Of a stretch of DNA of 64,000 nucleotides, positions 5,061 through 56,163 are shown one piece after another. Under the pieces are notes generated by a model, which was not told the origin of the DNA, made no database searches, and was given only the letters and a program-made list of their open reading frames with translations. A program made the translations under genes and the position numbers. Numbering within the stretch: the stretch's first letter is position 1; every line of letters begins with the position of its first letter. The stretch is from Euglena gracilis (taxonomy: Eukaryota), in contig CP154954.1 of assembly GCA_039621445.1 (NCBI GenBank), forward strand, positions 16,200,140 to 16,264,139. The letters run 5' to 3'.

Positions 5061-6499
5061 GATCGACTCAAAAGTCTGGCAACCCGTACCCAGACTTTCC
5101 CCTCCCTCCTCCCTCCCTCCCTCCCTCCCTCGCTACACTTTTTGTGCACCTGTGCACTTGGGCAGGTGCACCCCCTTATGTACCGTGGTAGCTTCTGTGG
5201 AGATGATTGGAGCTATGCCGTTTCAAAAAGGGGGGGAATGTGACCAGTGACTGAACTGCACATGCAACAACTGAATTCAGCACATTGAAGTGCCTTCTAA
5301 CCTACGGCAAGCAATCCGCGCAAATTATGACAAAAAATCATCCGATTTAGGCATTTTCAGGCAAAAAATGGAAAAAGTGTGAAACGTTCTGACGGGACGC
5401 ACAAAATGGATTATTCTGGTCCGTAACAACGGGGGGTATGGATGTGCTACGTTTTCGTAATCTTTCATGGCGTATCTGTGTCAAAAACTGCCGAACACAA
5501 ACCGGGGGTGACACGTCACGCATTCGGGTCGCGAAACAGTTAACGCACTGGTGGTTTACTGTTGGACATCCGTAGGCCTGCTTTTGTGGAAATCCAGAAG
5601 GTGTCTAGAGGGGATTTGTCAACTTTTTTCTTTTGGCGAACATGCACCTGGTTATGGCGCATCGAATGATCCATAAAATAAAGTGTGGTGTGGCTTGTAT
5701 CAAAAGTTATTAAACCGTCGCCTCATCAGCAAATCCGCTCAGTCGGACCCCTCGAAGGGGTCCGCCGGGACGTACACACGAGCCGCTCTCGGCGGCACCG
5801 TGTCCCGACTGCTGGTGGCCGCCCCACGCCCTGCGGGGTCCGCCGGTACCCACCCGCCCGCCCGCGGAGGTGACTCGTCGCCCGCTGGTGATTCGAATCG
5901 CGACCGTCGAGTCGGTCGCTCAGGCAGGGACCCCTCGGACGAGGACTCGGCAGCCACGGACAACGGCAGATTCGCGGTGCACCACAGCATTAATTAATTT
6001 ATTCTTGATGCGCACAATTGCGCCCACAAAATGCATTCTGCGTGTTCAGGGAGGGAGGGTTTGACCCCCCCATCCTCAAAAACGTTCGTAGTCTCAAACT
6101 TACGAAGCCACAAACATTCAATACCTTCCCATCTACTTTTAGAACACAAGTAATTCCCAAAAGAAATGTGGGGCATGTACAGGTGTACAAACGCCTGTAC
6201 TAATGGGCCACTATTTTCACACGGGACTGAAGGAACTCTTTGTCAGACGCAGTACACGTACAAGGCCTACTGCACATGCCATTTAGGATGAATATGGAAC
6301 AGTTTATACTTTTGATGCGCGCAATTGCGCAAATAAAAAGTATAAATTGTTTCATAAGGTACAACCGTATCACCACACACGTGCACATGTTTTTTTTTAT
6401 TTTTGATGCGCGCAAATGCGCAAATGCTAAGTAACACTTCCGTGTTCCTGAGATATGAATGTTAGCAGGACAACGGTGATAGTGAATAGCCCCCCAAAT

Positions 6500-7953
6500 T
6501 GACTGAGCAACCGCGAGTCTGGCTGCTGCCTCCCCAGGAGCCCTCTCCTGGTGTGGACGGCGGCGACCCAGCACGCTGTCCCAGTGGACCTGGCACAGGT
6601 CCAACTCCGCCTGCGACCGGCGACTGCTGCCAGCCTGCACGTCGTAGCACAGCTGGTCCAGCTCCGTCGCAGCGTCGGCGGAGGGTACCTGGTGCTTCAG
6701 GAGCGTCCGCAGCGCGTACTGCAGCACGTCCTTCAGTGCAGCGTCGAGCGCCAGCAGGGATGGCGGACCCACCCAGCCGTCCGGCCACCGCAGGACCACC
6801 GACTGGTCCTGGGACTCCTCCCCCTCGTCCACGTCGAGGTCCTCGGGCTGCCGTCTCTCCGTGCACAGCCCCTTCACCGACGTGAACGTCACCATCTGGT
6901 GGACCAGGCGGTCGGTGGCGTCCAGCGGTGGGCGCAGCTCACTGCCGTCCAGCAGGTAGTCCAGGTTGCGCAGGCAGTCCGCCACCCCGCCCACTCGCAG
7001 CTCCCGGGCACCGTGGTGCCCCTGCCTCACCAGGAGGTACAGGTCCATCACGTCCTCCACCTCCACCGCCCAGCCTGCTGAGGGTCGCCTCGTTGACCTC
7101 CTCGGAGAAGCAGCAGGCGGGCAGCTGCCGTGCCACCGGTCCCACATCAGCAGCGTGCACGCCAGCGTACGCACGTAGTCCGAGTGGCCGCGCGGCCGGT
7201 GTTCGGGTATCGGTGCCTCCAGGTGGAGCAGCATCATCAGGGCGTTGCACAGCACCTTCCGCGCCTGTCCACCGGTCTGCGGCCGCCGCTCCTCCCAGTG
7301 GCACCCCCGCACCTGCCACCCCAGCGCGAAGCAGGCCGGCGCCCACACCACCAGCAGGTCCTCCAGCGCCTGCGCCACCGCCAGGTCCCGCTCCAGCTCC
7401 TCCAGGGCCTCCACCGCCTGGGCCTCCTTCCGGCGGCAGTCCTCCACCCGCCGGATGCTCTCCATTTCCCCGCTCCCCGACTGCCACGCCCGCTGCATCT
7501 CCACCTCCGGCAGCACGGTGTCCCGACACCGTCGCAGGTTCCGGGTCATCCGTCGGAGGCGGGCGCGGCGGTCCGTCGGCTTCATCAGCATGGCGCCGAC
7601 CCACATCTCCAGCGCCTGCTTGGGGACCACTGCTCGCCCGGCGCCATCGTGCCCCGCTGCAGGAACAGGAACAGCGGCAGCAGGCGGCGGTACAGCACGT
7701 ACAGCACCTGCTTGTACGCGTGCCACACGCCGTACAGCGGGGGCAGCTGCCGCAGCGCCTCGCTCGCGTCCCACCTCTGGCACTCCCGCCCGTACACCAC
7801 CTTCAGCTGGCGGTACCAGAGGCTGATGTCCACCAGCAGGGGCAGCGGGGCCTTCAAGCGGGACAACACGTCACCCTTCAGGAAGCGGAGGACCTTCAGC
7901 ATCCCCACCTGAGAGGAGATCCGGTCGTCCGTCAGCATGAAGGGGCGCCACAC
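6500..7953 (-). pseudogene. Frameshifted copy of the main transposase exon
   Basis: Mirror of 47879-49400 broken into ORFs 7585-7953 and 6200-7783, with deletions relative to the right arm (GPKGET, DRRWM and GSMQQHPEA segments). Confidence 0.9.
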
Positions 7954-8410
7954 CGGGCACCGGGCGTTCTCTCAACGGCATCAGAGTCACCGCCTTCTGG
8001 GTGAAACCAACTTCGTAGTCACACAACCGATACAAAACAAAGGGTAAACTGATTCGATGCGCTCATTTGCGCAAATGCGCGCATCAAATCAGTTTACAAA
8101 CGTTAATCAGATACAGGGTAAGGTCCGGTACCTTGGCTGATTTAAAATTGCACCTGCGCGCAAATGTGCAAATCAAATTGAACCAACAGTACAAAAGAGA
8201 ACTTTGCACGAAACACTGCTGTATCACCGAAGACTAATTCAAAACATGTAATGCAGAGTAATGTGGGCGTGTTTGCGCGCATGTCGGTGTAATTCAGTTC
8301 TCTTCAGCTGACAGGCACCCATTTCCCACCAACACATCAACACCAACATAAGCAGTTGTTCTGTCCCCTCATCCCATTGACCTGCACAGGCTGTTCCAAA
8401 AAAAAATCAG

Positions 8411-9644
8411 TCATTCTGATGTTCGGGGCACGCCCAGCGGTACGCGCAGCTCGTGCGCCTCCAGCGGGCGTGCGCTGATCTCCGAGACCAGCTCCAGGAA
8501 CGCCGGCAGGTCGCTCCGCACCAGCCGTGCGGACACCCGGTGGATGCGGCCCAGCAGCTGCTCCAGCGATGGGTACCCCAGGTACTCCGGGATGGCGTCC
8601 ACCGCCATCCGCATCATGGCCATCACGCAGCAGTCGTGGGTGCGGATCACCATCCGGGGGTTCGACGTCCTGGCCCTCTTCCAGAAGTTGTCGAACCACA
8701 GGACCAGACAATTGCTTAAGCACTGTCCCACCCCCCCCGGGGGGGTGGGTGACTGGTTTTTTCAGAGTGACTGACTGGTTTTGGGCCCGGACCCCCTCCC
8801 CCCCCCCGGGGGGGGGTCGGCCAGGAGTGGGCAAAAGTGGCTTGAGTGACCCCGGCGCCGAAGGCGCCGGAAAATTTTTTTTGGCCTAAAATGGCCTAAA
8901 GTGACTGGAAAGTGGCCGTTTTTCTGAGTGGCCGACCCCCCCCCCCCGGGGGGGTAGTGACTGGCTGGTTTTTTGAAAATGAGTGAGTGACTGGTTTTTA
9001 AAAAAGTGGAGTGACCCCCCCCCTCCCCCCCCCGGGGGTCGGTAAGCAATTGTATGCACAGGACGCAGCTCCGCCCCTCCGACTGCTGCCACAGGTCCTC
9101 CAGCCGCTCACAGGCCCGCTGCCGCCGCCACTGCCGGTTCCACATCGGCCCCTCCGGCAGGATCCCACTGGGCCGCAGCAGCCGGCTGGCCGCCCGGTGC
9201 CTGGCCAGCAGTGCCTCGTGCTCCTCCGCCGCCACCCGCTGCGCCGACCGCGGGCAGGCGTGCTGCCGCATCGCCCGGTACACCGCCCAGGCGTCCTTGA
9301 GCAGCAGCTCAATCCGCGGCCGCCGCAGCTCCCGGGCCAGCTCCTCCAGCAGCGCCGCGCCCCCCTCCGTCCGCAGCGGCACCCGGGTGTGGGCCACCTG
9401 CACCACCAGGGTCTGCAGCGGGTGGCCGCGCTGCACCACCGCCGCCACGAACTCCTCGTAGCTGGTGGCGAAGTGGGCCTTCACCAGCTGGCCCAGCACC
9501 TTCCTGGCCTCCGCGGCCAAGGCGGCCTCCTCGCTGTAGCCCTCGTAGCCACGGCGACGGGAGTGGGTGCTGCTGGCCTGCAAGGACTCCATTCAGTCGT
9601 CCCCAGGTCTGCCGGCACGCCGCCTTTTCGCCACCACCTCAAAT
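8411..9644 (-). pseudogene. Transposase exon copy split by a 352-bp MITE
   Basis: ORFs 8762-9592 and 8411-8731 together reproduce the protein of 46607-47419, with the insertion at GRSCVL|WFDNF. Confidence 0.9.
8705..9056. mobile_element. MITE family B (hAT-like), left arm only
   Basis: TIR CAGACAATTGCTTA ... TAAGCAATTGTATG; perfect 8-bp TSD CACAGGAC (8697-8704, 9057-9064); empty site in the right arm at about 47126-47133. Confidence 0.95.
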
Positions 9645-11132
9645 CTGTTAACTTCACACCCCCGTTGTCGCCACCCTGTCCACATCACTCATACAGACAC
9701 ATTACACGCTACACGTCCCACAATCCTGTGTGTCATTTCTTTTATTTGGAACTGTTTGCGCGCGCAAAATGTGCAAGTCAACAAACAAAAAAGCACACAT
9801 TAATACACCGCTGTACCCTGCCTGGCCTCCCCCATGTACGTCAACTCCAGACAGGGGACACCGGCCATACACCACCATAGAGCCTTAGCCACCCAGCACG
9901 CAACACACACTCTCAAATGGTGAGCAGCGTAGCTTCCCATGGGTCATAGCGTTTCCACCAGCCATACAAATCACACCCCCACTGACACAACGAGTGACTG
10001 ACAACGTGCAGGTCAATAGACTGGCAGCACAACGACCTCTGGGTCGTTAAACAACCACTTTTCATTTCTGACACAATCTGGGGCGTCAACCACCCTCTCA
10101 GCAGCACAGTCAATCACAGTAGGAATAATCGTTTGATGCGCGCATTTGTGCAAGTGTGCAGAGCGCCACAAACAAAATTTATTCCGTACACCAATTAGAA
10201 GGTTCCAGTCACCGGGCATTTCTTCGTCCTTGTCCAAAACAGGGGTGTGTCATGGCACCCAACACACCATCACAATAATTTCGAAATTCATCAAAGGTGT
10301 CTGATTTCATCGCCCGGCAAACGTTCAGTATCCACAGGTCACATTTGGACACCCAAAAGTCAAAAAACGTACGCCGTCAGATCTGGCCAGTTGGGTGCCG
10401 CGGGTGGTGTGGGGTGGAAGAGGGTGTCGGCGGGTGTCCCACGGACAGTGTGCAGACAACCATCTGCGGAGAGGGAGAGGTACAAATGGTCGCGTGCCCG
10501 TTCGGTCGAGAAGTCAAGTTTGTACTCGAAGGGGTTCAAATTGCCCAGCCCTAACGAGTTCCGTCCGCGATCACAATTTTTTTTTTTGGCAGGCAGGGTA
10601 CAGGGTCCCAGGGGTTTCAAAAAAATGGTCCATTTGCGCAAATGCGCCCATCCTAAAGGGAAAACCCTTAAGTGCGAATTCGGCTGCCTAAGCCCCGGCC
10701 CAGAACCAAAAATTGTCATTGTTTAAAAAAAATAATGTGAAATGCAATTTTTTTTGTCCCCCCAATTTTTCTGGCGCTTTGAGCAAAAAAAAATTGTTTG
10801 TTCGGGGGAGGGGGGTCCTGACTATACCATTGCTTAAGGTTTGTCTGACCCCCAGGGGGGTGATTGGCTGGTTTTTAGGAGTGGTTTTTGGCTCCAGGCG
10901 CCCCCCCTCCCCCCCGGGAGATTGGCCACGAATGCCCGAAAGTGGCCACCCGACGCGGAAGCCACGGGAACTTTTTTTTTGAAGTTTTTGGCCTTTTCGG
11001 CCCGAGTGCCCCTGTGTGCACTGTGGCTGTTTGTTTGGTGCCTTTTATCCCTTCTTCTGTTCCCTTCTTCTGGCTGTTTTTCGCCTCTGAACCTTTTGTC
11101 TGTGTACGTGGAGGTGGCCGGAGCCTGGCGGG

Positions 11133-14357: not shown

Positions 14358-14628
<271 letters not shown>

Positions 14629-39790: not shown

Positions 39791-40006
39791 TGAGGTTTTT
39801 AATAGGTTTTTGGCTGATTTTGTTCCAAAAACTCCCAAAAGAAATTTTCGGCGCTTCGCGCCGGTCACTGGAAAAAAATTCACTAGCTAGCCCTGCTAGC
39901 AGACCCCCCCCCGGGGGGTCTGCTAGAAATCCCACTAGCCAAATTTGGACTAGCTGCAGTCCAACCCCCCCGGGGGGGGTACTGCAATCCCTTAAGCAAA
40001 TGCCTG
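39791..40006. mobile_element. One-ended MITE family C fragment, right arm only
   Basis: Ends in CCCTTAAGCAAATGCCTG and has the family C interior; it occupies the position of left-arm 16168-16265. Confidence 0.85.
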
Positions 40007-41500
40007 CTTGGGACATGAATTTTTTTTTGCTCAAATCGTCCAAAAAAATCTTGGCACTTCCTGACAAAATCTCGTCAATGGGAAAAGCATTTTGAATCCA
40101 AGCGCTGGAAGAAACAGTTTGACCTTTTTGGGATGTGGTCCGGGATGTTCCCCATTGGACCCTCTCCCGGTAGACCTCCCCCCGGCCCACCAGTCGATAT
40201 TTCTTCCTGTTAGAGCACCAACACCTCTCAAAACAAATGGGGAATCTCGTGCCGACACATCACATCGGTGCATGGGTGCAGCACCCCTTGCACCTGTGTT
40301 GTCTGTGCGCTGGATGGTATTCAGGTAATGAATTCTTAATATCCGAATTAAAAATGATACATCAAAGTTAAGAAGCATTTGATGTTTGGAGTCTGATTCA
40401 TCACCAGGGTGGATGAACGCAACATGGCTTTTTGGAAAAAGCGACCTAAAACATCCAATAACATACTTGGGAGAAGCACCCACCTCAGCTGCCTGGAACC
40501 TGGTGCTTCCGGGGGTGCCTCCCAGACCTTCTCCTGGAAACTAGAAAAGCAGTATTCCTTCTTTGTTGTAGAGCAAACCTTGGATCACTCCAAATTCAGA
40601 AACGGGGGAGGGGGGGCTCAACACAGACATACCGTCCAAAGGCCACCAGGGAGGCTAAGCTGACTAATTACCATCAATCAGTGGCATTCCATCGATCGTT
40701 CCTTTCGTGGGTAGTTTAATCAACCTTACCGTGTAAACATCCACAAAAACGACGTGAAAAACTATCGAAAAAAACAATGCATTTGGGGGGTGTTTCCTGT
40801 CTTGTGCCGCTTGTGCGATGCTTATCGGCATGGGGGTCATACTTGGTCACCAAACAAAGCCCGTAGGTGGTTTATATTAGGGGGTTCATTTGGGGGGAGG
40901 GTGACACCAAACCTAAACCCTACCATAAACGTCTTACTAACTGGGTGAACCCATTCCACACCACCCTCCGACCCCCCCCCCGTCCTGACACGCCAAAATA
41001 TGGGGAAAGTGCGAAATGGCATTTTGGGAATGGGAAAAGTGCAGTTGATACGGGGTGTGTTAGCTGGCAAGAAACAAATCAGGGCTTTGCGTTTTGGATT
41101 TAAGCCTGGCAACAGTCAGCCCATTTTGCAACTCATGAATCTGTGAAATGAATGCAAATGCGGAAAAGAAGCTGAAGCTCGCCCTTTCTCTGAGAATATA
41201 GAAAACCAAATTGTTTATTGGTCAATAATTTTAATCTTAACATCTATCCGGATACCTCTGTTTGAATCATCGAACAACACCATTGCCTGGGCACTGTTGG
41301 CTGGTACCACCCCATACGCGTGATGGGCACGGCACAGCACACAACACAGAACAACAGCAGAGCATAACACAACAATGGAAGCCCGCCATACACCACAGCT
41401 CCAGGTGTGGCATCGCTGGGGTGCAGTGCAATGGAACACAATGCGCAGCGCAAGACGGGAGTGACTCGGTATGGGCAGGCGGGGGGGGGGGAGGTATTGC

Positions 41501-41781
<281 letters not shown>

Positions 41782-44645
41782 CGTCTTGGCAACTATTGGG
41801 CAGCAACGTGCTTTTCTTCTCCACCAGTTTGGCGTAATGTTGTAGTGAGGTCCCCCCCCCCTTCACTGCAATGTTAGAACAGGTTCTCCATCCACGACAT
41901 TGGGGATGCTGACATGGGATTCTGACGGAGTGTGGCACTCCGTGAAACCCATTCACCCTCTGCACGGTGCGTCGGTGGATTCAATAAAACCATGCCAAAT
42001 AAAATTAATGGTTTGAGACATGTGCTATTTTAACCGACGCATGTGGTGTGGCTTCTGCATGCAAGGGCGTTCCTTTAGGACCCATGGGGGGTCCAGCTCA
42101 GAGGCTGGAGAGCTTGGGCTGGTTGGAAAAAGGCTGTTGGCTTACCCCCTTGGGGGTGCCAGGGCTGGAGCTAAGCCTGACCCGCGATCGAAACGGGTAT
42201 CACAAAATTGAAAGCGCAAAAATGTCCAAAAAAAAAACTGCCAATTATGCAAAAAAAAATCGATTTTTCGACCCCAAATTTGCCCTGACGATCCCTTTTG
42301 CGACCCATTTCCCCCATTTTTGACCCATTTTGGCCCATTTTTGGACCCCCAAAAGCGAAAATCTGTTACTGACCAGCCACTTTTCAGGCGGCTGGAAAAA
42401 AATAAAACTCGCTCTTGTCAAAGATTTTGTAATCTAACAACAGAAAAAGTGCACAAGGTATGCAGCAGGGCGTTGCTTAAGAAAATTTGACCAGAATTTG
42501 GTTAAAATTGGTTGCTTTCTGCAAAGAAGCAAACGACCAGAGTACAGTGTTGGGCGGCATTCCTTCAAAACCCCTCAAAGTTGCAGTAAATACATTTTTT
42601 ACCATGCAATAAATCAATTTTCACCAAGATGGTGGAAAATAACAAAAATTCAAAAAATAGAAGAAAAATGAATAAATGAATAAATCCGATGATTCAAAAA
42701 CACCATAAAACGGCCACAGCTTCAAATTTGAGATACGTGAGACGAGTCCCTTTAAGTCCCGAGCTTTGCTAACAAAAAGGCCAAAGCCATAACTCGTCCA
42801 GGGCACTTGATATGTTACAAATTTCGGGTCCCACACACAAATAGCTCAAAAACCTTAAGAAATGGCTCAATCTGCAACGACAAGTGTGCATGAAATCCCG
42901 GTAAATTAACATGGACATTCACAGGTCCTTGACCCTGTGAATGCCCGAATAACCTACGGGGGGGGGGGGGCAAAGAAAAAAATGATCGTTTTGGTAACCT
43001 GGCACACCGCCAGGTTTTTTGGGGGGGGTTTGGGGGGGGGGGGTGCCCTCTCCATTGTACTGGCCATTGTTCAATGCTGTCCGAGTGGCTTTTCGGGGCA
43101 CAGCGAATCACCACAGATCAGTGAAGGCCAGCTGCAAAAGGTGGAAATTTTCAGACCGTCGCAAAAGGTTTGGACTCATCATTGTGATTTTCTGTCGCAG
43201 TCACCCCTTGATGAGAAAAAATAATAATAATAATAAATGCGTGATGGATTTGGTGCCCCAGGATGTGGAGTTCCCTGAGGGTAAAACAAGGTTCATCCCC
43301 AATGGCTCCCAGGCGAACAGACCCGGTTCAAATATGTCACTTTTTGATATTAGATGAGTGGGGAAGAACCGCCTTGGCTTTGGAACAGGCAGCCACAATA
43401 ACAAAAAAAGCAGGGCAGGGAAGCGGCAAATGCATATAACGAACCTCTTCCAGCACATCATTCTCAATACTAAAATGCAACCAAGGAGGGACAACACACG
43501 AAGATGGAATTGTTTGCCTCCTCCTTTGTTTGTTGAATACCAGAGGGGGGGGTGGCGAATCCTACCCAGTTTGCACCCCTTGTTGACTGAATACCTCGGG
43601 CCTGGTGGGAGTTAGGGGCCAACCAGAAGTGGTTCAGAAAGCCGGGATCCAGTCGCTCGCGATTGGGAAAAAATTTTGGGAACGGGGCAGGGGTCATGGT
43701 GATAATCTGAAGTTTTCATTCCCATTGAAGAAAGGCCATCGCTCATCCACCCAAAAAGTCAAAAAATGCGGTTTTTTTATTTCATAATATTTCATTTTCA
43801 ACCCTGTTCAACGCCCAGACCGGCCATTGGCAGGTCCTTAGTCCTAAGGCGGTCCATAATGGGGCAGTCTTTAAAAAAAATACACTGCCCCATTGACCGA
43901 CCTGCCCTTGGGGGAAAAGCACATGGACCCAATGGACCAATGCATCACCTGTGTACATCAGGAGGGAGGGGGCAGCCATCAGGCACCAGGTTTTCGGCAC
44001 ATGATGCATGATGCATCGCCAGGTTCCAAGTGGTGGGCAAATGGGAGATCACGTAAAATAAAAGGAGAAATATGAAAAGTCCAGATATTGTGTGAAAAGG
44101 GGAACTCTGGGTGTCTTTTTGAGCTTGAAGAATTTCCCCAATAATACACCCCCCCCGACTCAAGTACCCACCCTGGGCCCAAGTTTTGGATACCTGTATA
44201 ATAAAACACCACCAGGTATACCATTTGGGGGAGGGGTTTCATTGGGCGAGGGTCGCACCAGTAGGGCCTTGGTAGGTTTGTTGTACCAAGCATAATTTTA
44301 AAATATGCTTTTTTTCAGAGGGAATTTGATGAGTTTCCGCTTTGCTTGATTTCTATCAAGGAGTGTGGCTGGGGGTACATTATTTGGGCAGCTGAAATCG
44401 CAGGCCACGGGGCGGGGTATATTATTTGGGGGGAAGTTTGTGAAGGTGTTTTGAAGGCTGCCGATCGATCATCTTCCCTCCATGTCTGTTGGATTTTTGG
44501 ACGCACCTGCCATCAAGGGTCTCCATCCACCATGCCACCACAGTGTCCCCCAAGAGCTTGGGTGAGATGAAAGTGGCTGAACTGCGGCGGGTTTGAGTGT
44601 TTTAAGGGTGGGACATAGAAGTAAACAAAAGGTAAGTCCCGCCAG

Positions 44646-45048
44646 CAGGCTTTTGCTTAAGGAGCCTCGGGGGGGGGGGGGTACTGTCTAGCCAATCGGC
44701 TAGACACTGGAAAAAGTGGACTAGCTAGACCCCCCCTCCCCCCCGGGGGGGGGGGGTCCGGGGGTCCCCCGGACTGGAAAAATGAGGTTTTTAACATGTT
44801 TTTGGCTGATTTTGTTCCAAAAATTCCCAAAAATGGCCAAAAACGGGCATTTTTGGCCATTTTTGGGGGTCCCAAAAAAAAATTTCGGCGCTTCGCGCCG
44901 GTCACTGGAAAAATTTTTCCATTAGCTAGCCCTGGTAGCAGACCCCCCCTGGGGGGGGGTCTGCTAGAAAACCCACTAGCCAAATTTGGACTAGCTGCAG
45001 TCCAGCCCCCCCCCGGGGGGGTACTGCAATCCCTTAAGCAAAAGCCTG
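44646..45048. mobile_element. MITE family C, mirror copy
   Basis: Same TIRs; TSD CCCGCCAG on both sides. Confidence 0.93.
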
Positions 45049-45488: not shown

Positions 45489-45514
45489 CTTAGGCAGCCG
45501 AATTCGCACTTAAG
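45489..45514 (+). repeat. Left TIR of the large transposon
   Basis: CTTAGGCAGCCGAATTCGCACTTAAG versus the reverse complement of 56138-56163, CTTAGGCGGCCTAATTTGCACTTAAG. Both are followed about 20 bp inward by GCGCA(T/C)TTGCGCAAAT. Confidence 0.85.
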
Positions 45515-46545
45515 GGTTTTCCCTTTAGGATGGGCGCATTTGCGCAAATGTACCATTTTTTTTGTAACCCCTGGGACCCTGTACCCTGCCTGCCAAAAAA
45601 AAAATTGTGATCGCGGACGGAACTCGTTAGGGCTGGGCAATTCGAACCCCTTCGAATACAAACTTGACTTCTCGACCGAACGGGTGCGCGACCATTTGTA
45701 CCTCTCCCTCTCCGCAGATGGTTGTCTGCACACTGTCCGTGGGACACCCGCCGACACCCTCTTGCACCCCACACCACCCCGCGGCACCCAACTGGCCAGA
45801 TCTGACGGCGTACGGTTTTTGACTTTTGGGTGTCCAAATGTGACCTGTGGATACTGAACGTTTGCCGGGCGATGAAATCAGACACCCTTGATGAATTTCG
45901 AAATTATTGTGATGGTGTGTTGGGTGACATGACTTATGACACACCCCTGTTTTGGACAAGGGCGAAGAAATGCCTGGTGATTGGAACTTTCTAATTGGTG
46001 TACGGAATAAATTTTGTTTGTGGCGCACTGCACACTTGCGCAAATGCGCGCATCAAATGATTATTCCTACTGTGATTGACTGTGCTGCTGAGAGGGTGGT
46101 TGACGCCCCAGATTGTGTCAGAAATGAAAAGTGGTTGTTTAACGACCCAGAGGGCATTGTGCTGCCAGTCTATTGACCTGCACGTTGTCATTCACTCGTT
46201 GTGTCAGTGGGGGTGTGATTTGTATGGCTGGTGGAGACGCTATGACCCATGGGAAGCTACGCTGCTCACCATTTGAGAGTGTGTGTTACGTGCTGGGTGG
46301 CTAAGGCTCTATGGTGGTGTATGGCCGGTGTCCCCTGTCTGGAGTTGACGTACATGGGGGATGGCCAGGCAGGGTACAGCGGTGTATTAATGTGTGCTTT
46401 TTTGTTTGTTGACTTGCGCATTTTGCGCGCACAAACAGTTCCAAATAAAAGAAATGACACACAGGATTGTGGGACGTGTAGCGTGTAATGTGTCTGTATG
46501 AGTGATGTGGACAGGGTGGCGACAACGGGGGTGTGAAGTTAACAG

Positions 46546-47419
46546 ATTTGAGGTGGTGGTGAAAAGGCGGCGTGCCGGCAGACCTGGGGAGGACTGAATC
46601 GAGTCCTTGCAGGCCAGCAGCACCCACTCCCGCCGCCGTGGCTACGAGGGCTACAGCGAGGAGGCCGCCTTGGCCGCGGAGGCCAGGAAGGTGCTGGGCC
46701 AGCTGGTGAAGGCCCACTTCGCCACCAGCTACGAGAAGTTCGTGGCGGCGGTGGTGCAGCGCGGCCACCCGCTGCAGACCCTGGTGGTGCAGGTGGCCCA
46801 CACCCGGGTGCCGCTGCGGACGGAGGGGGGCGCGGCGCTGCTGGAGGAGCTGGCCCGGGAGCTGCGGCGGCCGCGGATTGAGCTGCTGCTCAAGGACGCC
46901 TGGGCGGTGTACCGGGCGCTGCGGCAGCACGCCTGCCCGCGGTCGGCGCAGCGGGTGGTGGCGGAGGAGCACGAGGCGCTGCTGGCCAGGCACCGGGCGG
47001 CCAGCTGGCTGCTGCGGCCCAGTGGGATCCTGCCGGAGGGGCCGATGTGGAACCGGCAGTGGCGGCGGCAGCGGGCCTGTGAGCGGCTGGAGGACCTGTG
47101 GCAGCAGTCGGAGGGGCGGAGCTGCGTCCTGTGGTTCGACAACTTCTGGAAGAGGGCCATGACGTCGAACCCCCGGATGGTGATCCGCACCCACGACTGC
47201 TGCGTGATGGCCATGATGCGGACGGCGGTGGACGCCATCCCGGAGTACCTGGGGTACCCATCGCTGGAGCAGCTGCTGGGCCGCATCCACCGGGTGCCCG
47301 CACGGCTGGTGCGGAGCGACCTGCCGGCGTTCCTGGAGCTGGTCTCGGAGATCAGCGCACGCCCGCTGGAGGCGCACGAGCTGCGCGTACCGCTGAGCGT
47401 GCCCCGAACATCAGAATGA
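46546..47419 (+). CDS. Exon of Academ-like DDE transposase containing the first catalytic Asp motif (VLWFDNF); in-frame TGA at 46595 suggests it is inactivated
   Basis: AACAG acceptor at 46541-46545, strongly GC3-biased codons, ORF 46607-47419, motif CVLWFDNFW...RTHDCC (Asp codon at 47138). The 3' exon boundary is uncertain. Confidence 0.7.
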
Positions 47420-47734
47420 CTGATTTTTTTTTTTGGAACAGCCTGTGCAGGTCAATGGGATGAGGGGACAGAACAACTGCTTATGTTGGTGTTGATGTGT
47501 TGGTGGGAAATGGGTGCCTGTCAGCTGAAGAGAACTGAATTACACCGACATGCGCGCAAACACGCCCACATTACTCTGCATTACATGTTTTGAATTAGTC
47601 TTCGGTGATACAGCAGTGTTTCGTGCAAAGTTCGCTTTTGTACTGTTGGTTCAATTTGATTTGCGCATTTGCGCGCAGGTGCAATTTTAAATCAGCCAAG
47701 GTACCGGACCTTACCCTGTATCTGATTAACGTTT

Positions 47735-47788
47735 GTAAACTGATTTGATGCGCGCATTTGCGCAAATGCGCGCATCGAATCAGTTTAC
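47735..47788. repeat. 54-bp near-perfect palindrome built from the element's GCGCAAAT motif (mirror 8044-8097)
   Basis: GTAAACTGATTTGATGCGCGCATTTGC|GCAAATGCGCGCATCGAATCAGTTTAC, one mismatched pair. Confidence 0.95.
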
Positions 47789-47878
47789 CCTTTGTTTTGT
47801 ATCGGTTGTGTGACTACGAAGTTGGTTTCACCCAGAAGGCGGTGACTCTGATGCCGTTGAGAGAACGCCCGGTGCCCG

Positions 47879-49400
47879 GTGTGGCGCCCCTTCATGCTGA
47901 CGGACGACCGGATCTCCTCCCAGGTGGGGATGCTGAAGGTCCTCCGCTTCCTGAAGGGTGACGTGCTGTCCCGCTTGAAGGCCCCGCTGCCCCTGCTGGT
48001 GGACATCAGCCTCTGGTACCGCCAGCTGAAGGTGGTGTACGGGCGGGAGTGCCAGAGGTGGGACGAGAGCGAGGCGCTGCGGCAGCTGCCCCCGCTGTAC
48101 GGCGTGTGGCACGCGTACAAGCAGGTGCTGTACGTGCTGTACCGCCGCCTGCTGCCGCTGTTCCTGTTCCTGCAGCGGGGCACGATGGCACCAGGCGAGC
48201 AGTGGTCCACCAAGCAGGCGCTGGAGATGTGGGTCGGCGCCATGCTGATGAAGCCAACGGACCGCCGCGCCCGCCTCCGACAGCTGATCCGGACCCTGCG
48301 ACGGTGTCGGGACACCGTGCTGCCGGAGGTGGAGATGCAGCGGGCGTGGCAGTCGGGGAGCGGGGAAATGGAGTGCATCCAGCGGGTGGAGGACTGCCGC
48401 CGGAAGGAGGCCCAGGCGGTGGAGGCCCTGGAGGAGCTGGAGCGGGACCTGGCGGTGGCGCAGGCGCTGGAGGACCTGCTGGTGGTGTGGGCGCCGGCCT
48501 GCTTCGCGCTGGGGTGGCAGGTGCGGGAGTGCCACTGGGAGGAGCGGCGGCCGCAGACCGGTGGACAGGCGCGGAAGGTGCTGTGCAACGCCCTGACGAT
48601 GCTGCTCCACCTGGAGGCACCGATACCCGGACACCGGCCGCGCGGCCACTCGGACTACGTGCGTACGCTGGCGTGCACGCTGCTGATGTGGGACCGGTGG
48701 CACGAGCAGCTGCCCGCCTGCTGCTTATCCGAGGAGGTCAACGAGACAACCCTCAGCAGGCTGGGCGGCTCCATGCAGCAGCACCCGGAGGCGGTGGAGG
48801 TGGAGGACGTGATGGACCTGTACCTCCTGGTGAGGCAGGGGCACCACAGTGCCCGGGAGCTGCGAGCGGGCGGGGTGGACCGGCGGTGGATGGCGGACTG
48901 CCTGCGCAACCTGGACTACCTGCTGGACGGCAGTGAGCTGCGCCCACCGCTGGACGCCACCGACCGCCTGGTCCACCAGATGGTGACGTTCACGTCGGTG
49001 AAGGGGCTGCGCACGGAGAGACGGCAGCTCGAGGACCTCGACATGGACGAGGGGGAGGAGTCCGAGGACCAGTCGGTGGTCCTGCGGTGGCCGGACGGCT
49101 GGGTGGGTCCGCCATCCCTGCTGGCGCTCGACGCTGGACCGAAGGGCGAGACGGCACTGAAGGACGTCCTGCAGTACGCGCTGCGGACGCTCCTGAAGCA
49201 CCAGGTACCCTCCGCCGACACTGCGACGGAGCTGGACCAGCTGTGCTACGACGCGCAGGCTGGCAGCAGTCGCCAGTCGCAGGCGGAGTTGGACCTGTGT
49301 CAGGTCCACTGGGACAGCGTGCTGGGTCGCCGCCGTCCACGCCAGGAGAGGGCTCCTGGGGAGGCAGCAGCCAGACTCGCGGTTGCTCAGTCAATTTGGG
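47879..49400 (+). CDS. Main exon of Academ-like DDE transposase
   Basis: Long GC3-biased ORF (47879-49522) with WRPF..., PLLVDISLWYRQLKVVY (Asp at 48002), PLYGVWHAYK (His at 48110), GHSDYVR and SEEVNETTLSR (48731-48745). This parallels the DN / FDQPLYxKA / LGxFH / HxNYAR / DxxxE motif series I recall for Academ-type transposases. Exon ends are approximate. Confidence 0.75.
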
Positions 49401-49920
49401 GGGCTATTCACTATCACCGTTGTCCTGCTAACATTCATATCTCAGGAACACGGAAGTGTTACTTAGCATTTGCGCATTTGCGCGCATCAAAAATAAAAAA
49501 AACATGTGCACGTGTGTGGTGATGCTGTCAATACGGTTGTACCTTATGAAACAATTTATACTTTTTATTTGCGCAATTGCGCGCATCAAAAGTATAAACT
49601 GTTCCATATTCATCCTAAGTGACATGTGCAGTAGGCCTTGTACGTGTACTGCGTCTGACAAAGAGTTCCTTCAGTCCCCTGTGAAAATAGTGGCCCATTA
49701 GTACAGGCGTTTGTACACCTGTACATGCCCCACATTTCTTTTGGGAATTCTTTGTGTTCTAAAAGTAGATGGGAAGGTACTGAATGTTTGTGGCTTCGTA
49801 AGTTTGAGACTACGAACGTTTTTGAGGATGGGGGGGTCAAACCCTCCCTCCCTGAACACGCAGAATGCATTTTGTGGGCGCAATTGCGCGCATCAAAAAT
49901 AAATTTTCAAAAATTAATGC

Positions 49921-50168
49921 TGTGGTGGACCGCGAATCTGCCGTTGTCCGTGGCTGCCGAGTCCTCGTCCGAGGGGTCCCTGCTTGAGCGACCGACTCGA
50001 CGGTCGCGATTCGAATCACCAGCGGGCAACGAGTCACCTCCGCGGGCGGGCGGGCGGGTACCGGCGGACCCCGCAGGGCGTGGGGCGGCCACAAGCAGTC
50101 GGGACACGGTGCCGCCGAGAGCGGCTCGTGTGTACGTCCCGGCGGACCCCTTCGAGGGGTCCGACTGA
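49921..50168 (+). CDS. Possible low-complexity terminal exon of the transposase gene (...VPADPFEGSD*)
   Basis: Isolated GC-rich island, open in both arms (mirror 5739-5990 on -), ending in TGA. No clear splice acceptor was found. Confidence 0.3.
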
Positions 50169-50713
50169 GCGGATTTGCTGATGAGGCGACGGTTTAATAG
50201 CTTTTGATACAAGCCACACCACACTTTATTTTATGGATCATTCGATGCGCCATAACCAGGTGCATGTTCGCCAAAAGAAAAAAGTTGACAACTCCCCTCT
50301 AGACACCTTCTGGATTTCCAAAAAAGCAGGCCTACGGATGTCCAACAGTGAACCGCCAGTGCGTTAACTGTTTCGCGACCCGAATGCGTGACGTGTCACC
50401 CCCGGTTTGTGTTCGGCAGTTTTTGACACAGATACGCCATGAAAGATTTCGAAAACGTAGCATATCCATACCCGCCGTTGTTACGGACCAGAATAATCCA
50501 TTTTGTGCGTCCCGTCAGAACGTTTCACACTTTTTCCATTTTTTGCCTGAAAATGCCTAAATCGGATGATTTTTTGTCATAATTTGCGCGGAATGCTTGC
50601 CGTAGGTTAGAAGGCATTTCAATGTGCTGAATTCAGTTGTTGCATGTGCAGTTCAGTCACTGGTCACATTCCCCCCCCTTTTTGAAACGGCGCCTTGCCT
50701 CAGGTCACACACC

Positions 50714-53700
50714 ATGGCCGACCCTGTTGCTGTCCCCCCAGAGGGGGAGGCTGCCGTCCCCGGGCAGGCGGAGTCCGGGACCGAGGCGGCGGAGGCTGGA
50801 GCGGAGCCCGCCCCAGCCAAGGCCGCTGCAGCGCAGGAGCCGAAGCCCGCCGCCAAGCCGGGGTGGATCCGCCCCCGCGGTACCTCCCGCAACCTGCCCA
50901 TCGCGGAGGTGTACAAGGAGGAGGTGAAGCAGTGGGTGCTGTCGACGGGGACAAAGCTGCTGCTGGACGTGCTGCACGTGGACTACAACCAGTCCGAGGG
51001 GCAGACGAGGCCCCTGGACAACACGGAGGTGGAGCGGAAGCTGCGGCAGCTGCAGCTGAACCCCCCGCTGGAGATGGTGCAGGTCACCGTGTGGAAGAAG
51101 GCCGGTGTGTCTATCAGTGTGATTGCGTCATACGTGGGTGTTTGCGGTTGTGGTGGTTTGTCTGGAATGAGTTTGCCTCTGGAAACTCTGTTGGTGTGCA
51201 GGGTTCAGCATTGGAGTGCGTGCATTGCTTTGGAAGTCGGATTTGATTTGCGCATTTGCGCGCACAAGCACACAATCCCTTTTTACTGGCGCATTTGCGC
51301 GCACGTCCATGCATAATGTGTTTATTTGTGCATTTGCGCGCACATACGCATACAGTTTGTTTATTTGCGCAATTGCGAGCACATCCCTTCATTGTCCCCA
51401 CAGAGAACCACTACGTGCTGATGTCGGGGCAGCACATCACCTCGGCGCTGAAGCGCTGGTCCGAGGGCTTCAGGTCCCAGAAGCTGAACCCTCCGAAGGG
51501 TTCAGCCCTGTATTTGTTTGTGTGTTTTTTGTTTTGCCCCTCTCATGCAGCCCCTCTCGTGCAGCCCCTCTCGTGCAGCCCCTCCTGTGTCTGAAAGACA
51601 TAGGTTCAAATGCAGGGCTGTGGCCAGGGCAAGTACGACCTCACCACCATCCTCCACCCCATGACCCCGGTGCACCTGCGGCGGGCTGCCGGCGGGTACG
51701 CGCAGGCCATCCAGTTGGCAGTGAAGGAGCTGTCCATCCCCCAGTTCGCCAACGTCCTGGTGAAGGGGAAAGACATCTCCACGGTGCCGGCGGTGCGGCT
51801 GGCGGGTGCGGCAGGCCGGCTGGGACTAGGTGTGAGCCCACTGCCAGTCTGCCGATGCATTGAATGACAGTGTCCTGTTTTATTTGCGCAATTGCACGCA
51901 TCAAAAGTGGATTCATGCATAGTGCATTCTGCCTGTGATGAATGGACGGTGTGTTTACGTGTCCTTTGTTATTGCCTCAGGGTGAGGTCATCAAGATGTG
52001 GGGGCCGCTGCAGCGGCTGGTGGAGGAGACCCCCGAGGCGGTGGCAGGCCTCCTGAGCATGGAGTCGGCGCTGGCGGCGAAGGGCCGCACGCTGCTGTCC
52101 TCCCACATGCGGTCCCTCAGGCGCCTGCTGACCCCCGAGGCGCGGGCCCAGGTGGCGGCAGCACTGCAGAGCCCGGGGATCGGGCTGGCCCAGCTGGAGC
52201 AGGTGGTGACGGAGGCCACCCACGAGATGTGGGTGGCCTTTGCGTGGAGGAGCGACAACCAGATGATCCACGGCCAGATCGGTATGCCATTGCTCTGGGG
52301 TCTGGGGTGCAATTGTGTTGTTGGATATGAGAACAGACAGGCACGCACGCACGGTGGATTGCATGCTGTTCTGTTGTAACTGTAGTCACACTCCCTCGCT
52401 GCTCCCTCACAGTGCACAACGCGGCGGAGAGGAGCCGCTTCAAGCGGACGGTGCCCGTCGCCGCCCTGCAAGTGGCACGGCTGGGGTCGTGGACCTGGAG
52501 CCCGGTGGAGCCGAGGCCCCCCCTGGCGGCGGTGCTGACCGCCCCCTTCTGGGTGGAGGCGCAGTTCGAGGAGCTGCGGGCCTCCTTCACCCTGCCGGCT
52601 GTGGAGTCGGAGATCGTGTCCAAGGAGGGCGGGGCCCTCCAGGAGGTGGTGGCGGCCAGGCCAGCCGGGGAGGAGAAAGGGGTGAAGTGCCTGGTCTACA
52701 AGGCCAGCGGAGAGGGGGTACCGGCGGAGGCGCTGGGGGCCGCAGTGGGCCTCGTCATCGTTGAGGTCACCCACAACACCGGCTCAGGGTTCTGTTATAA
52801 TTGATTCTTCTTTTTTTTAAAGTGTTCCTGTTTTATTTGCGCATTTGCGCGCACCAAAAATAAAAATGATGGTTCTGATTAGCACCTTCAGTTGCACACA
52901 ATTCCGGCCTTTATTTTCAAATTTTTTTTATGCGCGCATTTGCGCAAAAATTATTGTGCACGCACTTGCGCAAATGAAATGACCATGGTTAAAAGAAATA
53001 CGCTATCTGAAACAAAATTCTGCCTCCTCCTGGCCGAGCAGGTCAAGTGCCTGGCCGGCGTCGTGCCGGTCGTCATCTACGGCGCTGCCGGGGCGGTGGC
53101 CGCTGTGGAGACGGCGGTGCGGCGGCTGGCGCCGGGGCGGGAGACGGCCATGGTGGACTGCAACAGGGGGGCTGTGACAGGGGCCAGGGGGTGGCCCGCA
53201 AGTTTGAGAAGAAGGCCCTGGTGGTCGTGTTCGGCCCCGGCGACGTGGAGCGGGGCAAGGTACGCACCCTGGATGACTCAGTGTGCAGATTGGCATTTTA
53301 TGTTTTACATATTGGGTGCCGGAAGGTCACCAGTGCCAAGCTGTCTGCTTTTAGTGAAAGGTCCCCTTTTTATTTGCACAATTGCGCCCACCTTCAGTAC
53401 AAAAAAGCTTGATTCTTTCTATGTTTGTCTGGCTCCCCTTGCTGCCGAAGCTGGAGTGGGACGTGGAGTCCAGCTGCGGGGCGGGGCTGCACTGCCTCTG
53501 CGTGGAGTGGCTGTGGCGGAGGGTGGTGCGGCGGATGGGGGCGGCCAACGCCATGGTGATCCAGACCGCCGACGCGGCTGTGGCGGCCCGGGTGGCGGCC
53601 TGGGCGGCCAAGCCCCCCAAGGTGCTGGTGGTGGCGGAGGACTCCGCCAGCAGCCTGGAGGACGTCACCCAGACCGTGGGCAACACGGTGACGCTGCCCC

Positions 53701-54740
53701 GGCCCGTCACCTCCGCCATGCTGCCGCTGCTGCTGGCCGCCCTGGAAGGGGGGGACCCCCTGTGGGTCCCTCTGGAGAATGCCACCCTCCAGGACAAGCT
53801 CCGCCTGGCGGCTGAGGAGACGGCGCGGAGGGCGAAGGAGTCTGAGAAGCGGCGCCGCCAGACCAAGCTGCGGCAGGAGGAGCGCCGCCTGCAGAAGCTG
53901 GAGCAGCACCAGAAGGAGGGGGGTGACCGGAAGAAGAAGCGGCGAAAGAAGGAGGCGGAGAAGAAGCCCAGCTGGCCCCGTCCCCCAAGGCCCGACGGGA
54001 GGAGGCCGAGGCGGTGGACAGCCCGGAGGAGGGCAGTGACGTGGAGATGACCCCGGCCGGCAGCCAGGCTGAGGAGGCCAGCCCCGTCATCGTGCTGCCG
54101 CCGACGGGCCAGCCCAGCCGGCACCCAGAGGCGGAGGACAGCAGCAGCGACACCTCTGACACCTCCTCGCCGGTCGCCAGCGAAGCTCCCGCAGTTCCAG
54201 CAGGGGAGGCAGAAGAGGAAGAGGAGGAGGACACCATCGAGGAGATCACCCCCGGGTACAGGAAGCCAGAGCCCCAGAAGGGGAAGGAGAAGAAGGGGGA
54301 GGAGAAGAAGGGGGAGGGGAAGGGGAAGGGCAAGGGCAAAGGCAAGGAGGACACCCGGTGGAAGGCGGCCGGGCTGATCCGTCCACCCGGACCCGGTGAA
54401 GCCCTCAAGGGCCCGAAATCCTGGCACCTCCTGGACCCCAAGAAATACCCGGGGATGAAGCCGGTGATCGAGGGGGCCAAAGCCAGGGTGGCGTCGGAGG
54501 CAGCAGCGGCGGCGGAGGCAGCAGCGTCGCAGGCAGCGGCGGCCGCAGCACCAGCGCCGGAGGAGGCGGAGTTTCGGCGAGGAGGAGTCCGAAGAGGAGG
54601 AGGCCCCGCCACCGCCACCGCCACGCACCGCCCCGGCTGTGGCGCCCAGGAGCACCGTCCTCCGCGGGCTGCCGAAGCCTGGCGGCAAGCCGGTGGCCGC
54701 CTCGGAGAGCCTCGCCAAGCGGCTCTCCAAGCACAAGAAG
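50714..54740 (+). CDS. Multi-exon gene: N-terminal ParB/Srx-like domain, probable degenerate DNA-methyltransferase-like domain, coiled coil and acidic/Lys-rich tail; several apparent frameshifts
   Basis: CAG then ACCATGG start at 50714. GC-rich exons at about 50714-51104, 51404-51499, 51616-51831, 51981-52281, 52413-~52770, 53042-53259 and 53451-~54740, mostly with GT..AG introns. Spliced exons 1-2 give GQTRPLDNTEVERKLRQLQLNPPLEMVQVTVWKKAENHYVLMSGQHITSALK, a ParB N-terminal pattern. Frame slips occur near 51500/51616, 53190, 53975 and 54570. Confidence 0.7.
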
Positions 54741-56137
54741 TGAGACTGGCTGTGGGCCTGTCTCCTAATTTTTTTTACGTTCTCTTCCCCTCTGCATTCT
54801 GTTTCCACCATTTCTTTTTTTTTGTAAACACTTTTGATGCGCGCATTTGCGCAAATGTTTCTGTCACAAGTGTTTCACCCTCTCAGTCCCCTCTCGGCTA
54901 TGGTATGTCCCCTCTCAGAATTATTTGTTTTAAATAAAAAAAATTCCTGTTGATGTTGATGTACGCAATTGCGCAAGGAAAACACACACTTTGTTGTTTT
55001 GTGGTTTGAATGCCGGCCGGAGACGGTGCCCCACTGCCGTGGTGTCTGTGTACACCGCCCCGCTGACCACCCCCGGCCTACGTCATCCCCATGCCCTCTA
55101 CCCTGCCGGGGGGTGGACTTGTGTTTTTTTGGGGGAGGTTGATGTGACCCCTCTCGTGGCTGCAGCCCCCTCTCGTGCCGTGCTGTCCCTCTCACCCGTG
55201 TCATAAATACACAAAAGAAAAAACCCCTTAGTACCACCCCCCACTCACAACCAGCGCGGGCGGAGTGCGGGGCGGCCCCTCCTCCTGTTCAGCCAGGCGC
55301 CCGGGCGACAAGCGTATCACCGCCCGCCGGGGGTTTGTTTGTCTAGTTTCTTTTTTTTCTGTGTGGTCTGCTCATCCCCATCTCTTTCAACCATCTGGTT
55401 CTTCCACCGGCACCCCTCTCACACACTGGCACGCACACCATCGTACGTTTTATTTGCGCAATTGCGCGCATCAACATCAATCGTCTGTTTTGGTGCCTCA
55501 CAAAAACACCAAGGTCAAAGTCCTGGGTTGCACGCACACAAGCCAATATGTATTGTAAACCAAGCCCCCACTGACAACTGCGGGTGTCTGACCCCACCGC
55601 CCTGCCTGCCGCACATCACCCCTGCACACCCTCTGCACCATCACACCTCTGCACCCTGGACCCCTCCTCCCTCTACCCCCTGAACACCATACCCATCAAC
55701 CCGCACCCCTTCCAAAGCCCTGTCACCCTTTCCCCTGCTTTCCTTACCAATCAAAAATTACCAAGTCCCAAGGGTCAAAGTACACACACACACACTCCGA
55801 GGCACCGGGAGGGAACACACTGCCGGCGAGACTGCTTCCCCAAAAAAGGCTCCGCACACTCACAGGGGCGGGCAGGGTCCCGGTCCCCGGGTGTTTTTTT
55901 TTCACTTTTTTCAGTGTGAGCGGGCAGGTTCCCGGGGGTTTGGCCCCCAAATTTTTTTTGGACACCTCTTAAAATCACATTTTCAGCCAAAGTCCCAGGG
56001 GTCACTCCGCCAAAACCAAAAAAAATTGTTTCGTTTTTGCCCTTGCTCGCCGGCGTGTCTCCTCGCCCCACGGACCTTCACTGCCGGAATCAAAAAACTC
56101 GGGGATTTGCGCAAGTGCGCAAATAAAAAGTTAAAAG

Positions 56138-56163
56138 CTTAAGTGCAAATTAGGCCGCCTAAG
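56138..56163 (-). repeat. Right TIR of the large transposon
   Basis: CTTAAGTGCAAATTAGGCCGCCTAAG, inverted match (23/26) to 45489-45514. Confidence 0.85.

Follow-up and report, generated by a model that had tools for sequence, protein, structure and literature searches.

An intron-bearing repeated element in the Euglena gracilis genome

The DNA analyzed here, a window of 64,000 nucleotides (nt) from contig CP154954.1 of Euglena gracilis, harbors a repeated element of 10.7 kb that is bounded by imperfect terminal inverted repeats (TIRs) and carries two intron-bearing genes on the plus strand, a putative transposase gene (gene 1) and a gene whose product is possibly related to ParB (gene 2). The noncoding DNA of this element contains 22 sites of a near-palindromic motif, one of them within each TIR, and in the window this motif was found only in the element and in a truncated inverted copy of it (Table 1). 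The two ends of the element align over approximately 65 nt (CTTAGGCRGCCKAATTYGCACTTAAG ... GCGCAYTTGCGCAAAT). No clear target-site duplication was seen at these ends, whose flanks consist of G-rich low-complexity DNA, and no host gene was recognizable within the window.

The window as a whole consists of a single large inverted duplication, whose arms, at approximately 5225 to 27900 and 28000 to 50686, are 96 to 99% identical; its center lies near 27870. The breakpoint of the left arm cuts the element approximately 30 nt upstream of the start codon of gene 2. The initial annotation had listed mirror positions of the motif in 6000 to 10650, and eight matches indeed lie there (6009, 6316, 6407, 8058, 8067, 8155, 10137, and 10634), but they belong to a truncated copy rather than to another full-length element. 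Across 5,101 aligned bases, the two copies show 94 differences, 32 of which are CpG transitions, suggesting that CpGs in this region are hypermutable in the way that methylated ones are. Such a richness in CpG transitions also argues that the duplication is real; together with the observation that the arms end at different sequences, it led us to reject the idea that the arms are an artifact of sequencing or assembly.

In a DNA sequencing run from the same species, 14,182 contig pieces matched the element at ≥90% identity, suggesting that the element family is highly repeated. As expected with a reiterated site, 1,823 of these pieces fit two places in the element. RNA reads on the element were few (87, 65, and 206 in the raw RNA runs) and mostly partial matches.

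A near-palindromic motif recurs along the element

Allowing at most one mismatch, the 14-mer core of the motif, GCGCGCAWTTGCGC, matched the window 24 times, compared with 0.04 matches expected, and none of 100 shuffles reached this number. Seventeen of the matches fall between 45532 and 55469 and seven between 6010 and 10649, with none elsewhere. With the 17-mer TTGCGCAWTTGCGCGCA and up to three mismatches, we obtained 32 matches, 8 in 6009 to 10650 and 24 in 45531 to 56123. The latter correspond to 21 distinct sites once overlaps are merged (the overlaps 49875/49876, 51326/51335, and 56106/56107 were scored as one site per pair, and 47749 and 47758 as two), and one gapped variant, at 46414 to 46431, brings the total in the element to 22. 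Two further patterns gave similarly large excesses: a 17-mer tolerant of CpG decay had 19 matches (0.03 expected), all inside the element and its mirror copy, and a symmetric 20-mer had 12 matches with at most two mismatches (0.01 expected). Even for the 8-mer ATTTGCGC, we counted 26 copies in the element, 9 in the mirror copy, and none in the remaining ~47.8 kb of the window; it is by far the element's most overrepresented word. Outside 45494 to 56161 and 5225 to 10720, none of several pattern scans found the motif in the window. The initial annotation had reported about 20 copies and none in the remaining sequence. All 21 of the positions it listed match a site within 0 to 9 nt, and the absence elsewhere is borne out for this window, down to the 8-mer.

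Aligned in one orientation, the 21 ungapped sites share a conserved unit of approximately 28 nt, tTttAT-TTGCGCAWWTGCGCGCA-tcaaaA, beyond which the information content drops to background. These unrelated flanks suggest that the motif is a site in its own right and not a piece of a longer inserted repeat. The site consensus reads as an imperfect 13+2+13 palindrome, with a center of 2 nt and arms that match at 10 of 13 positions. The motif was originally described as palindromic, which holds in the sense of a near-palindrome; a perfect palindrome (9+2+9) was noted for the copy in the right TIR. Its core is composed of the palindromic hexamers TGCGCA and GCGCGC and contains five CpGs. The orientations of the 21 ungapped sites are distributed 14:7, a skew that is not significant. 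At position 51288, the window copy has a G that breaks the motif, while all 20 DNA contigs covering this position have the consensus T, suggesting that the family consensus retains this site.

Of eight sites tested for folding, three fold better than shuffled sequence and five do not. The three well-folding sites owe their additional pairing to their flanks—in one case, 47735 to 47790, to the head-to-head arrangement of two sites—and a plain single motif pairs over 5 bp only. With three of eight sites folding better than shuffles, a role of the motif in structure alone appears unlikely.

In a collection of viral contigs, the motif 21-mer had no match and the symmetric 20-mer had one isolated match; in metagenome contigs, we found four lone motif matches, three of which represent one conserved locus, and no arrays. 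These viral and metagenomic matches look like chance. A literature search with the motif strings returned synthetic oligonucleotides only.

The sites avoid coding DNA and are built into both TIRs

To place the sites, we used exon borders inferred from open reading frames (ORFs), GT/AG dinucleotides, and homologue alignments rather than from RNA; no intron-like splice was seen among the 15 RNA joints listed (of 113), and the few RNA reads did not confirm the introns. None of the 22 sites falls into the approximate coding blocks, which have a GC content of 0.62 to 0.74, and all 22 lie in gaps with a GC content of 0.37 to 0.53. Of the seven inter-exon gaps inferred in this way, five hold at least one site, and gaps 2 and 4 of gene 2 hold none. 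The descriptions of the copies as always noncoding and as present in most introns are thereby upheld, with the qualifications that block borders are approximate and that the introns are inferred. The site at 49470 falls within the last stretch of a stop-to-stop ORF, past the part that is conserved in homologues.

A copy had also been reported just inside each TIR, and this is what we found: the distance between the inferred tip and the start of the motif core is 37 nt at the left end and 39 nt at the right end. Nevertheless, the motif is far from being a feature of the ends only, since the sites span 45531 to 56122 and most of them are more than 1 kb away from either end.

Table 1. Features of the repeated element and of its truncated copy in the E. 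gracilis window
Feature	Position	Strand	Location, basis, or remark
Repeated element, 10.7 kb, imperfect TIRs, two intron-bearing genes (+ strand)	45494..56161	+	End alignment; tips approximate
Left TIR, CTTAGGCAGCCGAATTCGCACTTAAG...GGGCGCATTTGCGCAAAT	45494..45549	+	End alignment
Right TIR	56105..56161	-	Motif ATTTGCGCAAGTGCGCAAAT, perfect 9+2+9 palindrome, 0 mismatches to ATTTGCGCANNTGCGCAAAT
Gene 1, putative transposase	46613..49390	+	Large coding blocks at 46613-47410 and 47864-49390, probably with a small exon 1 ahead of them; conserved WFDNFWKR, LLVDxxLWYRQLK, YGVWHAYKQ, and SEExNE; transposase family unassigned
Gene 2, possibly ParB_N-like	50714..54742	+	About seven coding blocks; conserved N-terminal part GQxRPL..NPP..VW, then SGQH
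Motif site	45531..45547	-	Within left TIR; 2 mismatches; 37 nt from tip
Motif site	46036..46052	+	Gene 1 5' noncoding region; 17-mer scan
Motif variant, 4-nt spacer (one extra base), TTGCGCATTTTGCGCGCA	46414..46431	+	Read directly; missed by ungapped scans
Motif site	47661..47677	+	Gene 1 inter-exon gap; 0 mismatches
Two overlapping head-to-head sites	47749..47774	.	Perfect palindrome 47735-47788, 25-bp stem; -27.7 kcal/mol, z -9.8
Motif site	49470..49486	+	3' of conserved gene 1 coding region; 0 mismatches
Motif site	49569..49585	+	Intergenic; extended flanking stem, z -4.4
Motif site	49876..49892	+	Intergenic; 17-mer scan
Four motif sites, 39-nt spacing (51248, 51287, 51326, 51365)	51248..51381	+	Gene 2 gap 1; repeat family D4
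Motif site	51884..51900	+	Gene 2 gap 3; 17-mer scan
Motif site	52837..52853	+	Gene 2 gap 5; 0 mismatches
Two motif sites (52931, 52957)	52931..52973	-	Gene 2 gap 5; 17-mer scan
Motif site	53374..53390	+	Gene 2 gap 6; 17-mer scan
Motif site	54838..54854	-	Past gene 2 stop codon; z -3.5 with flanks
Motif site	54960..54976	-	3' noncoding region; 17-mer scan
Motif site	55454..55470	+	3' noncoding region; 0 mismatches
Motif site	56106..56122	-	Within right TIR; 39 nt from tip
Inverted copy, truncated to the left 5.2 kb of the element	5225..10720	-	8 motif matches; 1.84% diverged

Two other sequences in the noncoding DNA of the element are worth recording. Gap 4 of gene 2, which lacks the motif, holds GGTGCAATTGTGTTG at 52296 to 52312, a sequence that resembles the core with its CpGs decayed to TpG. 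Separately, a second short repeat, CCCCTCTCGTGC, occurs five times, compared with 0.27 times expected, with all copies in this element (51537 to 51576 and 55148 to 55178): three in tandem in gap 2 of gene 2 and two downstream of this gene.

The two genes of the element

Relatives of gene 1 (n = 12) are mostly ~800 to 890 amino acids in length and 37 to 65% identical. They share the invariant blocks WYDNFxKR, LLVDxNLWYRQLK, YGVWHPYKQ, and SEExNEAxLSRLG, so that the invariant D, W/H, and E-rich blocks follow each other in a D..D..H..E-like order. This order of acidic and histidine residues recalls that of DDE transposases with an inserted domain, and it is from this pattern and from the context of the gene that its product is regarded as a putative transposase. 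No relatives of gene 1 were confirmed in the metagenome, viral, or prokaryote genome contig collections. The gene 1 family also features a long antiparallel coiled coil, located between the H block and the E block (residues 389 to 523 of the homologue P0003).

Three or more frameshifts disrupt gene 2 in exons 6 and 7 (near 53180, 53965, and 54575), suggesting that the window copy is probably dead, that is, a pseudogene. No in-frame fit was found for the junction of exons 2 and 3. The first exon has 17 database representatives with the pattern GQxRPL..NPP..VW. The relatives of gene 2 are only 17 to 29% identical to the homologue P0024 (alignment A3, P0013 to P0029), and the predicted proteins of 15 of 16 relatives lose similarity just after VW, exactly where the first exon ends in the window; P0024, in turn, is the one homologue that reads through this point. 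The shared loss of similarity suggests an old, conserved intron position. Since the first intron of gene 2 would thus be common to distant relatives, the introns appear to predate the motif sites and not to have been created by them.

Element-wide sites as candidate landing pads for an element-encoded protein

Given their distribution, it is tempting to speculate that the motif is a family-specific recognition site that is bound, as a dimer, by a protein encoded by the element itself, most likely the gene 1 product. This is the explanation that we favor, but tentatively, as a possibility rather than a probability. Transposases of TIR elements usually bind just inside the ends, and the presence of the site within the TIRs is the reason to favor the gene 1 protein over the gene 2 protein; the near-palindromic arms, together with the perfect copy at the right end, would suit a dimeric binder. 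According to this proposal, the TIR copies, at their fixed 37 to 39 bp from the tips, would position the protein for end recognition, and the ~20 further copies in introns, untranslated regions, and intergenic DNA would turn the whole 10.7-kb element into a multisite landing pad. The internal sites would keep the element's protein on its own DNA, where the retained protein might help to bring the distant ends together over ~10 kb; alternatively, the sites might titrate the protein and thereby damp its activity. The binding, the identity of the binder, and the effect of binding are all inferred from the sequence. The initial annotation had suggested a self-recognition array with a ParB-like reader; the anatomy of the sites fits such an array, while the lead to ParB as their reader is weak (see below).

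The closest mechanism that we could find may be that of the subterminal repeats known from two groups of plant elements, CACTA (En/Spm) and hAT (Ac/Ds). These repeats of 6 to 12 bp, bound by the transposase or TnpA, occupy no more than a few hundred bp at either end. Similarly, Lemi1 reportedly binds subterminal motifs on Emigrant miniature inverted-repeat transposable elements (MITEs). As in these systems, the E. gracilis element has a short family-specific motif, in both orientations and near both ends of a TIR element, with a presumed element-encoded binder. Unlike the CACTA and hAT repeats, however, its unit is ~28 bp long and near-palindromic, and most copies are located in introns or intergenic DNA, far from the ends. 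Should an element protein bind the motif, the element would clearly exemplify a eukaryotic transposon that has recognition sites along its whole length, its own introns included, rather than just at its ends. It would also bear on how the two ends of a large transposon are located and paired, on the self-regulation of such transposons, and on the role of the ParB-like accessory genes of algal transposons.

Several observations weigh against this proposal. Known subterminal transposase sites are not spread over the whole element but are restricted to the few hundred bp next to the ends. Moreover, 6 of 146 bases of the motif cores have changed since the duplication, compared with 94 of 5,101 overall, which gives no sign of purifying selection on the sites since then, although both copies look dead. 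In addition, the site is perhaps not private to the family: RNA reads leave the match to the element at motif edges (loose ends at 47771, 49468, 52832, 52850, and 55476, with an agreement of 0.55 to 0.9) and continue into several different sequences, and some of them carry the symmetric, TIR-type variant of the motif. These reads suggest that the motif occurs in other contexts in the same organism, either in further family members or in host DNA. The assignment of gene 1 is affected as well. Gene 1 had no match in Pfam, including the Plavaka, KDZ, and Sola models, and the AlphaFold model of P0003 (predicted local distance difference test [pLDDT] score, 65.8) had no match in Foldseek; the fold matches of this homologue in VIA (Z up to 11.8) are all on the coiled coil, and the catalytic region is of low confidence. 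The nearest neighbors of gene 1 in Atlas, a protein-language-model resource, are clusters that carry no more than a domain of unknown function, DUF6589 (score, 0.91; 25 of 30 matches), and the literature search on DUF6589 returned one paper, which is unrelated. Finally, point mutations by themselves could not produce 20-odd copies of so long a site; a copying process is needed, and recognition by an element protein leaves this copying unexplained. Indeed, none of the explanations considered here, favored or rival, accounts for the origin of so many long copies, although the tandem run with 39-nt spacing in gap 1 of gene 2 suggests that local duplication contributes to the copy number.

Possible loading sites for a ParB-like protein

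Alternatively, the sites might be parS-like loading sites, at which a ParB-like gene 2 protein would nucleate and then coat, bridge, silence, or chemically mark the element. We regard this as unlikely, even if the sites are palindromic, numerous, and distributed over the entire element. The closest analogy for such a site array on a whole replicon may be KorB and ParB-parS: KorB has a dozen dispersed palindromic operators across the whole plasmid RK2, and in the annotation of phage P1, parS lies beside parB. In common with these systems, the element offers palindromic sites on mobile DNA that are presumably recognized by a self-encoded protein. However, it lacks a ParA, a ParB domain detectable by profiles, and an evident box for binding of cytidine triphosphate (CTP), and it is integrated in a eukaryotic host. 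In addition, bacterial parS-type sites are 13 to 16 bp long, compared with ~28 bp for the site in the Euglena element.

The statement that the element encodes a ParB-like protein stands on one protein-language-model lead. Besides the conservation of the gene 2 N-terminal domain among its 17 database representatives, residues 95 to 286 of P0024 are nearest in Atlas to phage clusters with ParB_N/DUF6551 (scores, 0.95 and 0.94), and all 10 of its 10 best family-bearing matches belong to one family or clan. However, about 1 of every 100 shuffled proteins reaches a score of 0.95, and genuine members of a family typically share more features than the 144 to 147 counted here. All other searches were negative. 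Neither the exon pieces of gene 2 nor its 17 homologues gave more than subthreshold noise in Pfam (including the ParB N-terminal ParB/Srx model, PF02195), NCBIfam, or PADLOC, and a profile search of PDB sequences returned 15 rows with E values of 0.07 to 9.6, none of them a ParB. The AlphaFold model of P0024 was poor (pLDDT, 57.7) and had no Foldseek match at an E value of ≤0.001, the best VIA match (Z 4.5) covered helices only, hhalign against phage P1 ParB yielded a probability of 0.12%, and a search of exon 5 and P0024 among longer proteins gave no match.

The CTP-binding box of ParB is the arginine-rich GERRxRA; its equivalent, identified by eye and not from an alignment with ParB, reads SGQHITSA in the window and TMQHRIKA in P0024, neither of which is rich in arginine. 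The ORF pieces gave no match to a P-loop or ParA family, only two gene-like regions exist between the TIRs, and no helix-turn-helix was detected. Furthermore, a site within the TIRs points first to the transposase. The truncated copy, which keeps its sites without gene 2, is neutral in this respect. Overall, we consider the likeness of gene 2 to ParB possible.

Some support for a ParB-like reader comes from algal transposons. ParB-like accessory genes have been reported from brown, red, and green algal transposons (PMC12477816; bioRxiv 10.1101/2025.02.11.637652). Among them are an Ectocarpus Sola1 gene that combines a ParB-like part with a DNA methyltransferase (PMC12477816) and the PAG3 gene of red-algal Plavaka elements, which combines a ParB-like N terminus with a 2-oxoglutarate oxygenase and lies adjacent to tandem inverted-repeat arrays that are proposed to be PAG3's own binding sites (bioRxiv 10.1101/2025.02.11.637652). 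The ParB assignment of PAG3 is itself a weak HHpred match (E value, 0.29) (bioRxiv 10.1101/2025.02.11.637652). The idea that a ParB-like protein binds the repeats of its own transposon is already in print, and the likeness extends to an algal-type DNA transposon, an intron-bearing accessory gene with a possible, faint ParB-like N terminus, and inverted-repeat motifs on the element. In contrast to the Plavaka arrays, the E. gracilis element has one short tandem run (four copies, in gap 1), and the other 18 sites are dispersed in introns, intergenic DNA, and TIRs. Also in contrast to PAG3 and Sola1, Pfam searches of the gene 2 pieces, in which the exons of this frameshifted copy were searched singly, revealed neither an oxygenase nor a methyltransferase domain. 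With Plavaka PAG3 as the closest published precedent, the E. gracilis element differs from it by having its sites scattered over introns and included in the TIRs.

In its strongest form, this alternative would describe a eukaryotic nuclear transposon whose own ParB-type protein loads at about twenty centromere-like palindromes and coats or bridges the whole element in a KorB-like self-recognition, which we think rather improbable. If true, such self-recognition could mark transposon chromatin, silence or protect the element, or hold an excised copy together, and a ParB-type system would represent the logic of bacterial plasmids reused inside a eukaryotic genome.

Possible alternatives: a host-factor target, a self-propagating unit, or an RNA element

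The motif might instead be the target of a host transcription factor, CpG-binding protein, or DNA methyltransferase and be common throughout the genome, the element having merely accumulated copies of it, for its expression or through its silencing. In this case, the finding would reduce to an ordinary host regulatory or methylation motif. We consider this quite unlikely, but several observations point in its direction: the five CpGs per core stand out from AT-rich DNA, the observed/expected ratio of CpG is 0.79 in the element compared with 0.54 to 0.62 in its flanks, the differences between the two copies are enriched in CpG transitions, and RNA reads join the motif to several other sequences. 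The last of these points is weakened by the possibility that the other flanks belong to further members of the same transposon family. The lack of even the 8-mer in the remaining ~47.8 kb argues against a common host motif, although this is a weak test given that no host gene was recognizable there. In addition, a host factor leaves the matching distances of the sites inside both TIRs unexplained.

We assign a similarly low probability to the idea that the 28-nt palindrome propagates itself or is generated by mutation, multiplying through short insertions, gene conversion, or slippage, and is tolerated in noncoding DNA without any binding function. This would supply the copying mechanism that so many copies of a long motif require, and it is in line with the local tandem amplification seen in the four copies at 39-nt spacing, with the short flanks TTTAT and TCAAAA that travel with the core, and with the free decay of the sites after the duplication. 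Introner elements and MITEs create or fill introns, and they resemble the motif in placing a short inverted-repeat sequence in many introns. However, only ~28 nt are shared between the E. gracilis sites, which is, to our knowledge, far shorter than any miniature transposon; neither target-site duplications nor longer common flanks were found; and the first intron position of gene 2, shared by 15 of 16 relatives, is older than the sites. The matched TIR copies and the absence of the motif from the surrounding repeats would likewise remain without explanation.

An action of the motif in RNA, with hairpins in introns and untranslated regions giving rise to small RNAs or affecting splicing, is highly improbable: 14 of the 21 ungapped sites are in gene orientation, and the double site at 47735 to 47790 forms a perfect hairpin with a weak microRNA-like match in Rfam (27 bits, compared with a gathering score of 101), but no Rfam family reached the threshold, most tested sites and the single motif show the poor folding described above, and sites occur on both strands and outside transcribed genes, including the TIRs.

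Other repeats of the window

Units of ~75 nt bracketed by CCCCCC..GGGGGG recur around the element (39904 to 39979, 44945 to 45020, 22090 to 22363, and 33382 to 33648) and may constitute a separate, minor family of repeats. The two arms of the duplication also have long microsatellites, (TA)n and (TAGA)n, at mirrored positions (14324 to 14674 and 41461 to 41813).

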